DNA from: Candidatus Heimdallarchaeum aukensis
GTDB lineage: Archaea; Asgardarchaeota; Heimdallarchaeia; Heimdallarchaeales; Heimdallarchaeaceae
DNA length: 64,000 bases
Assembly: GCA_021513695.1 (NCBI GenBank)
Contig: CP084166.1
Span: 1,120,001 to 1,184,000, forward strand
Direction: 5' to 3'
Each line of letters begins with the position of its first letter. Positions within the stretch are counted from its first letter, which is position 1. The position numbers were made by a program, and so were the translations under genes. Of the stretch, positions 27,497 to 48,934 are shown piece by piece. The notes beneath the pieces are model-generated. The model was not told where the DNA came from. It saw only the letters and a list, made by a program, of their open reading frames with translations, and ran no database searches.

Positions 27497-27571
27497 TGGT
27501 AGTCCCCAGGAGATTTGAACTCCTGCCCCCGGATCCAGAGTCCGGGATCCTTGCCACTAGACTAGGGGACT
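27497..27571 (-). tRNA. tRNA-Gln (anticodon CUG), CCA encoded
   Basis: Folded by hand. 7-bp acceptor stem (AGTCCCC/GGGGACT, A1-U72), anticodon stem CCGGA/TCCGG with loop CT-CTG-GA, T arm AGGAG-TTCAAAT-CTCCT, discriminator A plus CCA. Confidence 0.9.
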
Positions 27572-27606
27572 CTAAATTACAAGCGGTAACAAAGGATTGG
27601 AAAAGA

Positions 27607-27681
27607 TGGTAGTCCCCAGGAGATTCGAACTCCTGCCACCGGATTCAAAGTCCGGAATCCTTGCCGCTAGACTAGGGGACT
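27607..27681 (-). tRNA. tRNA-Gln (anticodon UUG), CCA encoded
   Basis: Same cloverleaf as the neighbouring gene, with anticodon loop CT-TTG-AA. 35-nt spacer between the two genes. Confidence 0.9.
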
Positions 27682-46199: not shown

Positions 46200-46460
46200 A
46201 TGGAAAACCAAAAAGGCAAAATTCCTATATTTCAAGTTGATGCTTTCACTGATAAAGCCTTTCAAGGCAATCCTGCAGCTGTTTGTATCTTAGAAGAAAA
46301 ATACTCTTTTTCTGATTCTTTACTACAAAAAATAGCTCAAGAAATGAATCTTTCTGAAACAGCTTTTATTTACGTGAAAGATCTAGATCAAATTACTAAC
46401 CAAAGTGAGTTCAGGTTACGTTGGTTTACCCCAAATAAAGAAGTCAAAATGTGTGGACAT
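46200..46460 (+). pseudogene. PhzF-family isomerase gene, 5' fragment (codons 1-87), truncated by IS insertion
   Basis: IFQVDAFTDKAFQGNPAAVC...LSETAFI...RLRWFTPNKEVKMCGH is the PhzF N-terminal pattern. After ..CGH (46460) the tracked ORF continues into unrelated IS sequence. Confidence 0.85.
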
Positions 46461-48328
46461 GATTTACTTTTTTACGTAAAGTTTTTCACACTCTGTCTTG
46501 CAAGAGAGAAAACTAAAGGAAGTTTAATCTCTTGAACTCAACCAAGCCATACAATGCCATGAAGGGGTTGAGACAGACATCATACACGAATCGTGGGAAT
46601 CATAAAGAAGAATAGAAAGTTTTTCTTTCTTTTCTTCACTCCACGAGAGACAAAAAAGAAAGAAAGAAAGAAAGAATTACTCCTATAATAGAGAAGGAGT
46701 TACTTTCCTTTTTGTCTACTGGGACTGCAACCAATGGCTGAGCCCTCGGCAAACAGTGAAATGGGAAGAACTGAACCTTTGACCAGTGAGGTAATCAGTG
46801 ATAGTTGTTCCTCGAGGACGAAAAAGAGCACCAAGGAACTTACGAGCGATATTCATTGCCCCTGTGAGGTCAGAGTGGAAAGTGTAGTTACAGGAAGAAC
46901 AATGAACTAAACCTCTAACGGGACGGATAACTTTTCTCCCACAACGAGCACAGTAAGAAGATGTCCCTCTTTCTCCTATTGTTAATATTCGGTGAGGTTC
47001 AAAACCTCGAAGTATCAATGCTCGACGAAGAAGAGCAAGAACAAGAGAAAAGTTCCACTGATGAAGTTTCCTGCGAAACTTACGAGTACTTTTACCTTTT
47101 CCTTTCTCCTCGCGAACATGTTTAGGGTAACCTACAACGACGAAAAGGTCATACATTCGCGCATAGGTCTCTATCGTCTGCACAACCTCACTTATAAATT
47201 GGTGAATATATGCTCGTTTAACGTTTCTATATCTTCTTCGGAGGAGACTAAGAAAACGATAAACTTGATGTTTTTTACCCGACTGGTCATTTAAAGCTGC
47301 TTTCCTCTGAAGACGGGAAAGTTTGAGTTTATATCTATGATTGACTCTATTCCACTGTTTGGTATACCAAAATTTTATCTCTTTACTTGTTAATTTCTTT
47401 TTAGGGGTTAGTAACACTCCTGTAGCAGGAATGTTTATACCTAGATCTATTCCCAGCACAGCTGGGGGAAGAGAAGAAGAACTTTTTTCTTTAGTAGGAT
47501 AAAAAGAAGGAGGAGGAAGAACTCTTAGTTGGAAATACACCCACCATTCAAGTGTAGAACGTTTATATCTTAGTTCTAAACTTTTTATTCGTCCTTTCTT
47601 TAATTCCTTCTGGTGGAAAGTGCTCATCTCTAAAGGTAACCATAGTTTCTGATGATAAGGTGTGTTTCTTTTCCATGTATCTAACGAGTCTCTTATCCCC
47701 ACCCACCAACGAGTGAGAGTGTTATTCTTCTCTTTAGGTAGATGGACGAGAACGAACCTCTTTGCATTAATTAGTTGTCTTCTTGCTCTCTTTATGGGTG
47801 GACGAGTATTATTAGGTCTATACCCTTGTTCATATAACTGTACGGCTATATCTCTACACTCTTGAAATTCGTTGTGGGAACAATAAGGGAACATTTTCTT
47901 CAGATCGTGAGGGACATTCTTTCTTCTCTCTTCTTCTTTAACTTTGGAAGTAGTTAGCGTCAGTTCATCTAGTTTTCCTCTATGCACTCTTATTTTCCCT
48001 TTTTTAGTTTTAGTACATATTTTTCTTCTGTTATGATGTATAATTCTCACATATTTTTCTATTATCCTCGTATCTCTTCCCGTTATTCTCCTTAACCTTT
48101 CCTTCTTCCTCGTCGTCAATACCTCCTTCTTTATTCTCACTTTCAAGGTTTTGACGACGTCCTCCACCATCTTTCTCTTTTCTCCTTCTTTCCTCTTTTT
48201 TTGTTTCTTCTTCTCTTTTTTTTATTATACTTTTTTCCCTATAAAAACCCCTCTCCTTCCTCTCCTCTCTTCTCTTTTTTTTTTATTTTGCTGTCAACAA
48301 CTGTAAACTACGTAAAAAATAGACGCAT
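46461..48328 (-). mobile_element. TnpB-only IS element (~1.87 kb, second family) inserted in the PhzF-family gene
   Basis: Deleting 46461-48328 joins ..MCGH to ATLASAAVLFNEF.. in frame. TTTTTTACGTA occurs near both ends in inverted orientation (46468-46478 / 48309-48319). Visibly more G+C-rich than the flanks. Boundaries are ambiguous by 3 nt (CAT at both junctions). Confidence 0.8.
46716..48170 (-). CDS. tnpB: TnpB-like RuvC/zinc-finger endonuclease (484 aa), Arg/Lys-rich
   Basis: AVLGIDLGINIPA (RuvC Asp), IGERGTSSYCARCG (Glu + CxxC), HCSSCNYTFHSDLTGAMNIARK (CxxC + Asp). No similarity at nt level to the copy A/B family. Confidence 0.8.
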   Translation of the reverse strand: MVEDVVKTLKVRIKKEVLTTRKKERLRRITGRDTRIIEKYVRIIHHNRRKICTKTKKGKIRVHRGKLDELTLTTSKVKEEERRKNVPHDLKKMFPYCSHNEFQECRDIAVQLYEQGYRPNNTRPPIKRARRQLINAKRFVLVHLPKEKNNTLTRWWVGIRDSLDTWKRNTPYHQKLWLPLEMSTFHQKELKKGRIKSLELRYKRSTLEWWVYFQLRVLPPPSFYPTKEKSSSSLPPAVLGIDLGINIPATGVLLTPKKKLTSKEIKFWYTKQWNRVNHRYKLKLSRLQRKAALNDQSGKKHQVYRFLSLLRRRYRNVKRAYIHQFISEVVQTIETYARMYDLFVVVGYPKHVREEKGKGKSTRKFRRKLHQWNFSLVLALLRRALILRGFEPHRILTIGERGTSSYCARCGRKVIRPVRGLVHCSSCNYTFHSDLTGAMNIARKFLGALFRPRGTTITDYLTGQRFSSSHFTVCRGLSHWLQSQ

Positions 48329-48934
48329 GCAACCCTTGCTTCAGCAGCAGTCTTATTTAATGAGTTTAAGATTACAACTAACATCATTGAATTTGAAACT
48401 TTAAGTGGTTCTTTACTTGTATCAAAGAAAGATAATGATTTTTATTTGGATTTCCCCATTTCTAGTTTGTTCAAAGATGAAGAGAATTATCAAGAACTCA
48501 TTTCTGCTTTAGGAATCGAAGAAGCATTAAACATCGAATATTGTGAAACTTTAGACTATCTTATAGTTGAAGTGGAAAACGATCAAATTGTAGAAGATCT
48601 AGCCCCTAATTTTCAAAGAATGTTAGACAGTCATTTACCTAAGAATGTTGGATTAGTAATTGTTACTTCTAAATCTACTTCTAACAAAGATTTTGACTTT
48701 GTTTCTCGTTGCTTTGCTCCTTGGTTTGCTATCAATGAAGACCCTGTAACTGGTTCTGCTCATACTATTTTGTATCCTTACTGGTCAAAAAGGCTAATGA
48801 AAAAAGAACTTATTGCTTACCAATGTTCTCCACGAGGAGGAATTCTTCATCTTCAACCTTCAACTTCTCCTGATAGACTTTATATAGTAGGAAAAGCAAC
48901 TGTTGTTTTACATGGTCATCTATTTCTTGATTAA
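48329..48934 (+). pseudogene. PhzF-family isomerase gene, 3' fragment (~201 codons)
   Basis: The frame of tracked ORF 48446-48934 is open back to 48329 (ATLASAAVLFNEFKITTNIIEFETLSGSLLVSKKDNDFYLDFP...). The C-terminal part has FVSRCFAPWFAINEDPVTGSAH, typical of PhzF. Confidence 0.85.

Follow-up and report, generated by a model that had tools for sequence, protein, structure and literature searches.

What has split the phzF gene of Candidatus Heimdallarchaeum aukensis into two pieces, how did the intervening DNA get there, and what might keep it in circulation? The question arises from a stretch of 64,000 nucleotides of contig CP084166.1 (GenBank assembly GCA_021513695.1, positions 1,120,001 to 1,184,000), hereafter the window, in which two open reading frames (ORFs) similar to PhzF are separated by 1,868 bp of other DNA. 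The answer that we consider highly probable is that a non-autonomous element, made of a tnpB gene and a candidate omega RNA, inserted recently into phzF and inactivated it, that its anatomy is IS607-like, and that it may be maintained by homing to sites of the form VCAT(G). A first-pass annotation, made from the sequence alone, had already described a PhzF-family gene split by a TnpB-only element whose precise excision would restore the ORF. The comparisons with related genomes bear out this description in its essentials and refine several of its details.

The two flanking pieces belong to one gene. The 5' fragment (46200-46460, plus strand) holds codons 1-87 and ends with ..KMCGH; the 3' fragment (48329-48934, plus strand) begins with ATLASAA.. 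and holds codons 88-288 and the stop. Their lengths, 261 and 606 nt, are each divisible by three, and removal of the 1,868 bp between them (46461-48328) fuses 87 and 201 codons in frame, as had been predicted, into a 288-aa protein reading ..KMCGH|ATLASAA.. at the joint. This fused protein matches the Pfam profile PF02567 PhzC-PhzF in a single stretch over its entire length (positions 1-281 of 281, E=1.9e-62), scores 143 bits against NCBIfam TIGR00654 (cutoff 76), and aligns colinearly with PhzF homologues across the junction. The annotated 111-aa ORF at 46200-46535 is the 5' end of phzF running into the right end of the element. The frame of the 3' fragment is indeed open upstream of its annotated start, and it reaches 48323 where the first-pass annotation had stopped at 48329, a trivial difference. 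What is annotated as two PhzF ORFs, including the one of 111 aa, is one gene disrupted by an insertion sequence.

Orthologous loci could have revealed two naturally separate genes, and the opposite was found. A search with the fused protein located, on the ENA contig L015, an uninterrupted 288-aa PhzF orthologue (P0121) that is 90% identical and lies next to the same upstream AAA_17 kinase gene. Two Heimdallarchaeaceae assemblies at NCBI (L016 and L017; GCA_054384295.1 and GCA_054381415.1) have the same GrpE-DnaK-DnaJ neighbours as the window and read, at the site in question, GGACATGCAACCC, which is exactly the predicted fusion. CATG is found once in this empty site and twice in the occupied one. 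Over ~3.7 kb downstream of phzF both assemblies are 99.5-100% identical to the window and lack the element; they therefore represent the same population carrying an empty allele. The occupied allele recurs in an independent Logan assembly (SRR15988954, L018), where the left-end/phzF junction is 100% identical to that of the window over 1,986 nt. Because the orthologous sites are empty and the identical insertion is present in an independent assembly, these comparisons show that the insertion is real and recent. They also bear on the suspicion that the split is an assembly artefact, in which a repeat was chimerically joined into phzF: the element is multicopy, repeats often break or mis-join metagenome assemblies, and the L016 and L017 contigs end near the locus, but the junction in SRR15988954 and the presence of the canonical CATG and ends of the family at both junctions make an artefact scarcely credible.

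How such an insertion could persist is best seen from the fate of phzF in close relatives. Both empty alleles (L016, 119-984; L017, 1-741) carry a 1-nt deletion, equivalent to window position ~48380, that splits the gene into ORFs of 111 and 162 aa, the former matching the length of the truncated window ORF by chance. They also show a divergent patch of 81-90% identity confined to phzF, and what they carry looks like a recombined or decaying allele. A lineage ~90% identical to the window (L021 and L101) shows a second, independent insertion into this gene: its orthologous phzF harbours a member of the element family that points the other way (L101:2336-4194 in GCA_054387415.1, JBQSJR010000057.1; likewise in L021). 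The left end of this copy lies at the phzF start codon (the equivalent of window 46200) and its right end at GCAT|TAAAC (the equivalent of window 48527/48528), and the ~460 bp of phzF that would lie between these two positions (codons ~2-153) have been lost, either through an element-adjacent deletion or through recombination between two copies. The gene was inactivated three times independently in these close relatives and is intact only in L015. The simplest reading of these three events is that phzF is probably dispensable in the clade, which would explain the persistence of the insertion. The first-pass annotation had argued for recency from the absence of further decay in the host gene; the recency stands, with the refinement that the gene is evidently dispensable as well. 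Disruption of a gene by a TnpB insertion sequence is, in itself, an ordinary and routine event that changes no concept.

The boundaries of the element (46461-48328, minus strand, antisense to phzF) were set by comparison with 14 copies from the chromosome of Ca. Heimdallarchaeum endolithica PR6 (CP084167.1), with which similarity begins and ends at CATG on both sides. An abrupt loss of similarity at precisely these positions, together with the orthologous empty sites, shows that the arrangement is not due to chance. The insert has, as first noted, a higher G+C content (0.378) than the window (0.318). It contains one long ORF, for a TnpB-like protein of 484 aa on the minus strand, and neither the insert nor the DNA adjoining the close copies has a transposase ORF, in keeping with its description as TnpB-only. 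In element orientation, the right-end junction is the CATG at 46458-46461, whose element side is always T-CAT, and the left-end junction is the CATG at 48326-48329, which together with the preceding G is the candidate target site or target-adjacent motif (TAM). CAT had been reported at both junctions; the full repeat is CATG, and the boundaries can hence be slid leftward by up to 3-4 nt, becoming 46459-48326 if the element is taken to insert 3' of CAT. Subterminal inverted repeats (T6ACGTA) had also been recognised, at 8-10 nt from the ends. Their arms, TTTTTTACGTA on the right (46468-46478) and its complement TACGTAAAAAA on the left (48309-48319; both given for the plus strand), in fact lie 7 and 9 nt inside the boundaries 46461 and 48328. 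The right arm is conserved in one subfamily (subfamily 1) and is replaced by TTTTTGCG in another (subfamily 2). A TATA-like box, GGTTTTTATAGGGAAAAAAG in element orientation (48231-48249, minus strand), lies ~70 nt upstream of the tnpB ATG, in a region where the block TTTTTATA is common to both subfamilies, and may be an archaeal promoter. The 64-kb window contains no second copy, solo end or derivative resembling a miniature inverted-repeat transposable element (MITE).

Outside the window the family is abundant. Homologues of the window TnpB with 82-93% identity occur in Ca. H. endolithica, in H. aukensis and in related metagenome-assembled genomes, and some clusters at 90% identity have 18-31 members from one genome. 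Exact look-ups of the window TnpB itself and of the H. aukensis protein P0004 returned no record. With further copies from metagenomes added to those of PR6, we collected at least 26 distinct insertion sites for the Heimdallarchaeum family, and a second gene is present in none of the copies. The family ends carry the motifs CATGNTTTACTTTTTGCG and TATTTTTTACGTA..GTAAATCAT. The PR6 copies are 79-97% identical and form the two subfamilies mentioned above, plus recombinants. In two of the latter (L002:2340-4200 and L020:225-2077), the left end and the 5' two-thirds of tnpB are of the subfamily-1 type, and the 3' third of tnpB, the omega-RNA region and the right end of the subfamily-2 type, a mosaic which shows exchange between the subfamilies. 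The searches suggested by the first reading, for empty sites and for additional copies in related genomes, were in this way both successful. We found nothing on TnpB or IS605 for these genomes in Wu et al. 2022 (text and 25 supplements), and their TnpB proteins are annotated only as 'transposase' or 'zinc ribbon protein'.

Host genes are frequent targets. When the element and one CATG are removed in silico, long ORFs are restored at 8 of the 12 full-length PR6 copies (L002, L003, L004, L006, L008, L010, L011 and L012), in both orientations; the products of the restored ORFs include an ABC transporter, a DAGK-like kinase, a protein with an MBL fold and one of 819 aa. The element of L011 directly abuts the start codon of the host ORF rather than interrupting it, and in L008 and L012 tnpB is frameshifted, yet the halves of the host ORF are still open. 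One could imagine that the elements are removed from the transcript like introns, either by self-splicing as in IStrons or by the archaeal bulge-helix-bulge pathway, and that the interrupted genes are still functional. This would account for ORFs that are open on both sides of 8 of 12 copies in one genome even though the interrupting copies diverge by 3-20% and tnpB is decayed in some of them; pairing of the ends is also possible at the RNA level, whichever way the element lies. We nevertheless judge it very improbable. There is no match to a group I or group II intron or to any other Rfam family, at the gathering score or at E<=1, in 46300-48500, and the element thus departs from IStrons in having no group I intron ribozyme match at its 5' end. 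The elements occur in both orientations relative to host genes; the phzF frameshift and the element-adjacent 460-bp deletion in relatives speak for dispensability rather than rescue; and the coexistence of empty and occupied alleles with nearly identical flanks (99.5-100%) speaks for recency. Bulge-helix-bulge splicing was rejected outright, the motif being absent from the junction co-folds, which are continuous or irregular and show no two 3-nt bulges around a 4-bp helix.

What does the element encode? Its tnpB (46716-48170, minus strand) is predicted to produce an RNA-guided RuvC nuclease of 484 aa. The three catalytic residues D242 (RuvC-I), E400 (RuvC-II) and D434 (RuvC-III) are invariant in an alignment of 17 sequences reaching down to 35% identity, and so are the four cysteines (C407/C410/C424/C427) of a C4 zinc finger located between RuvC-II and RuvC-III, which confirms the intact D/E/D triad and the two CxxC pairs noticed at first. 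The protein matches Pfam PF07282 (Cas12f1-like_TNB) with 32.9 bits (cutoff 26.3). An AlphaFold2 (AF2) model with a mean predicted local distance difference test (pLDDT) score of 78.3 was compared with the Protein Data Bank (PDB) using Foldseek, and it aligned with AsCas12f (8dzj, E 1.8e-14, template-modelling (TM) scores 0.49/0.55), ISFba1 TnpB (8iaz, 1.7e-11), ISDra2 TnpB (8h1j, 2.5e-11) and mimivirus Fanzor2 (9b0l, E 1.7e-10), as well as with OsCas12f, over nearly its whole length (~470 columns for AsCas12f and the two TnpBs); SpuFz (8gkh) was hit at E 1.7e-5. The model thus has the WED-REC-RuvC arrangement of a Cas12f/TnpB-like fold. Among intact copies of tnpB, the ratio of nonsynonymous to synonymous substitution rates (dN/dS) is 0.11-0.22. 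The element is possibly still active, as the first-pass annotation had surmised from its recency, and this remains an inference.

A nuclease of this type would need a guide. A stretch of ~300 nt (46459-46760, minus strand), made up of the final ~45 nt of tnpB and the ~255 nt between its stop codon and the right end, is a candidate omega-RNA scaffold with the position and form that one would expect. It consists of invariant blocks broken by variable hairpins. Over 17 copies, RNAalifold gives a structure of 72 pairs in which 98.5% of cells are paired. Compensatory changes are seen at nine pairs (slid controls, 0-5); they mostly separate the two subfamilies and therefore represent few independent events. 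The single-sequence fold of the window copy has an energy of -89.8 kcal/mol (z = -5.7). The region that the first-pass annotation had suggested folding, 46461-46715, is in this way conserved in structure, and it matches no Rfam family. At 46600-46700, the most variable hairpin is built in the window copy from low-complexity repeats, (AAAG)n and (CTTT)n; other copies have different sequences at the equivalent place and keep the hairpin. In the IS605 and IS607 systems the guide is read from the flank beside the right end. By analogy, the 46439-46458 segment (minus strand), which lies 3' of the right end and reads 5'-(G)TCCACACATTTTGACTTC.. in element orientation, is predicted to template the guide of the window copy and to be its target. 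The same sequence stands beside GCATG in the empty alleles L016 and L017.

Which sequences does the element choose, and does the choice reveal how it moves? The 26 distinct left junctions carry CATG in 24 cases, CATA in one and GATG in one (L100). The 22 distinct right junctions read ..GTAAAT-CAT; CAT never varies, and it is followed by G at 15 junctions, by A at five and by T and C at one each. Only AT is invariant at both sides of all copies. A 4-bp CATG duplication as the sole model was discarded, as the left and right junctions disagree in their fourth base in L005, L006, L009, L102 and L104-L106, and the left GATG of L100 runs counter to it too. The base preceding the left CATG is C at 11, A at 9 and G at 6 of the 26 sites, and never T, whereas the right end of the element always has T at the equivalent position. 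On the right, A, the mirror image of a T on the left, is not excluded and is even the most frequent base after CATN (11 of 22 junctions), so the flank preference is asymmetric. It also differs between types of elements: C precedes the left CATG in all nine elements with left ends of the T5GCG type, and a purine does so in 15 of the 17 with left ends of the T6ACG type (hypergeometric p ~2e-5, computed by hand from the tallies). In the recombinant L002 the preference follows the left end and the N-terminal half of TnpB, not the half with the omega RNA and the right end. A sister family (TnpB 41-45% identical; L028:~80-2000, L029 and L030), whose end sequences are unrelated to those of the window family, has G/A-CATG at its left junctions (two sites, never T) and ..GGGGAAAATAACT-CATG (..AACT-CATG) at its right junctions. 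The first-pass annotation had pointed to the left flank, ..GGGTTGC(ATG), for the TAM; the position holds, and the motif reduces to VCAT(G) across the 26 sites. Together, these tallies suggest VCAT(G) as the target and TAM, with self-discrimination as in IS607 elements.

The anatomy most resembles that of IS607-type elements, mobilised by serine recombinases, because of the shared short core, the subterminal inverted repeats and the precise excision that is expected of them. In IS607 elements, recombination takes place across a 2-bp core that element and target have in common; terminal repeats are absent, and imperfect inverted repeats lie close to the two ends, not equally far from each (Chen 2018). 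In CboIStron, of the IS607 family, it was established experimentally that target and TAM are TGGG and the right end is TCGG, with a shared core dinucleotide, and that a single upstream base allows the two to be told apart. The parallels with CboIStron, IS607 and ISC1926, including their TnpB-only derivatives, are several. First, tnpB is followed by an omega RNA (here a candidate) that extends to the right end. Second, a short core, AT/CATG in our case, stands at both junctions and once in the target. Third, the right end is the target or TAM changed in one upstream base, TGGG/TCGG there and VCAT(G)/TCAT(G) here. Fourth, the imperfect inverted repeats, here the T6ACGTA arms, lie near the ends and not at them.

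On this basis we infer a sequence of events in which the nuclease activity, the identity of the TAM, the homing role and the type of transposase all stay conditional. The element, composed of tnpB, a ~300-nt structured RNA reaching from within the 3' end of tnpB to the right end, and short ends, would insert 3' of VCAT(G); in this Asgard archaeon of the Heimdallarchaeaceae it has entered phzF at the CATG of codons 87-88 and inactivated the gene. It would move in trans, because it encodes no transposase. The guide of its omega RNA would be read from the flank beside the right end. After excision, TnpB and omega RNA would cut the empty site, made of VCAT(G) and the flank, and promote the re-copying of the element, and the occupied site would escape cutting because the element's own end is T-CAT(G).

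Several observations weigh against this account. No transposase of any type was found beside the close copies or the copies with 43% identity that were inspected. The core is AT in CATG and not the GG that is typical of IS607. The ends of subfamily 2 form a near-perfect inverted repeat of ~20 bp starting at CATG, of sequence CATGNTTTACTTTTTGCG, which has the look of a DDE-type element. The tnpB gene is intact in 7 of the 12 full-length PR6 copies and has frameshifts or stops in the other 5, so the family is not uniformly active. Finally, the window TnpB scores 80.4 against the NCBIfam model guided_TnpB, below the cutoff of 100 and over residues 161-444 only, and would therefore represent a divergent branch. 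The differences from known IS607 elements are in part the same: there is no serine-recombinase tnpA in or beside the inspected copies, the inverted repeat of subfamily 2 reaches the junction, and the host is an Asgard archaeon.

Some of these points would be expected if the element derived from a DDE-type transposon with terminal inverted repeats (TIRs), of the form G(N5-6)T5-6[AG]CG, which moved by cut-and-paste with a target-site duplication of 2 bp (AT) to 4 bp (CATG) and had TnpB for a passenger, in the manner of Fanzor1 elements and of the DDE-associated branches of TnpB. The near-perfect repeat CATGNTTTACTTTTTGCG at the ends of subfamily 2, the invariance of AT alone at both junctions of all copies, the single copy in the empty site and the documented existence of DDE-associated TnpBs with symmetrical ends all fit. 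A DDE gene, however, is near none of the copies, and the asymmetry of the flank preference (T at 0 of 26 left flanks, A at 11 of 22 right ones) is unlike what a transposase with a symmetric target would leave. We regard a DDE mechanism with a 2-4-bp duplication as rather unlikely for the family as a whole, though it remains a serious rival, especially for subfamily 2.

The same junctions invite a comparison with IS200/IS605, of which the element could be a TnpB-only (IS1341-type) derivative, moved as single-stranded DNA by a Y1 HUH TnpA and inserted 3' of CATG without duplication. The left junction is nearly always CATG and the fourth base on the right is variable (G 15, A 5, T 1, C 1), and a target on the left only, with the right end being part of the element, fits these counts. 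TnpB-only derivatives of IS605 are common and, like ISDra2 derivatives, the window element has a solo tnpB, a candidate omega RNA overlapping the tnpB 3' end, an insertion site 3' of a motif of 4-5 nt that doubles as presumed TAM, and a protein whose fold is near ISDra2 TnpB (8h1j). The ends tell otherwise: their similarity is inverted and not direct, convincing G+C-rich subterminal hairpins on one strand are absent from them, and only 5-bp A/U-rich stems are possible. TnpA is not encoded in cis, a Y1 gene adjoins none of the relatives, and the protein is longer (484 aa) and falls under the NCBIfam TnpB cutoff. An IS605 origin is in our view improbable.

Returning to the IS607-like reading, the base preferences admit a further and more tentative proposal for the family, namely that a palindromic CATG junction is combined with a VCAT(G) TAM, that a single base separates self from non-self, and that the flank preference is set by the nuclease; this is possible, and we hold it with some doubt. 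If true, the preference for a purine or for C would differ between two 80%-identical subfamilies through the nuclease that the element encodes, by retention through homing, and not through a transposase acting in trans. The family would then amount to a set of naturally occurring TAM variants in those archaea that are most closely related to eukaryotes, and the mobilising transposase might be of a type not yet linked to TnpB. The testable prediction is that a compact archaeal RNA-guided nuclease of 484 aa has the TAM VCAT(G), with T non-permissive.

Where the family stands among other TnpB systems depends on its wider relatives. Among the ORFs that adjoin 80 metagenome relatives, which we grouped into clusters and looked through, we recognised no gene of the Y1, serine, DDE or Cas1 type. 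Those that recurred were host genes (enolase, apgM, ATCase) or coded for two unknown proteins (842 and 266 aa) without a Pfam match. The window TnpB belongs to the same Asgard-specific clade as the TnpBs associated with aCas1 (Altae-Tran et al. 2023, PMC10691335). Unlike them, the window family has unrelated ends and lacks the GTTCACTC(A) motif in its 3' region, an internal hypervariable 'spacer' of the kind found in aCas1-TnpB loci was sought in that region and not found, and no Cas1 neighbour of its copies was recognised. On these comparisons it is a separate branch of the Asgard TnpB clade with different ends. By contrast, TnpBs at 33-36% identity, on Thor/Loki-like contigs, are flanked by GAGTGAAC..GTTCACTC inverted repeats. 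The inverted pair, GAGTGAACTC..GAAAC / GTTTC..GTTCACTC, lies ~70 nt upstream and ~400-430 nt downstream of tnpB (L035, L041, L043, L045-L047, L050-L052, L056, L058, L074, L088 and L090), and matches the motif GTTCACTCA published for aCas1-associated Asgard TnpBs (PMC10691335). Conserved sequence continues beyond the pair (ACAATTGT after the 3' copy), and the repeats are therefore internal and not terminal. At five loci (L037:3-2528, L056:3-2367, L075:1-2259, L079:2-1649 and L098:1-1588, minus strand), a pair of unknown proteins is encoded divergently upstream of the distant tnpB. The larger (>750-842 aa) has a PD-(D/E)XK-like segment, GQVDLVIF..ILEIKTK, and the smaller is ~225-266 aa long; neither has a Pfam match. 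Their genes are candidate partners of the distant elements.

Fanzor elements of eukaryotes and giant viruses, which reside in TIR transposons, likewise have a TnpB-like nuclease as a passenger between inverted-repeat ends. The window TnpB is no closer to Fanzor than to bacterial TnpB or Cas12f, and its host is a prokaryote. The TAM of SpuFz1, CATA, is reminiscent of CAT(G/A).

The element adds to the TnpB family a member not characterised before, whose ends, target and candidate guide-RNA scaffold are now defined. The locus in the window provides this definition to the base pair for an abundant and undescribed TnpB-only family of Heimdallarchaeia, and the pair of occupied and empty alleles in a near-clonal population shows directly that the element has moved recently in a lineage of uncultured Asgard archaea. 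Elsewhere in the window, at 27497-27681 on the minus strand, two tRNA-Gln genes (anticodons CTG and TTG) lie next to each other, 36 nt apart.

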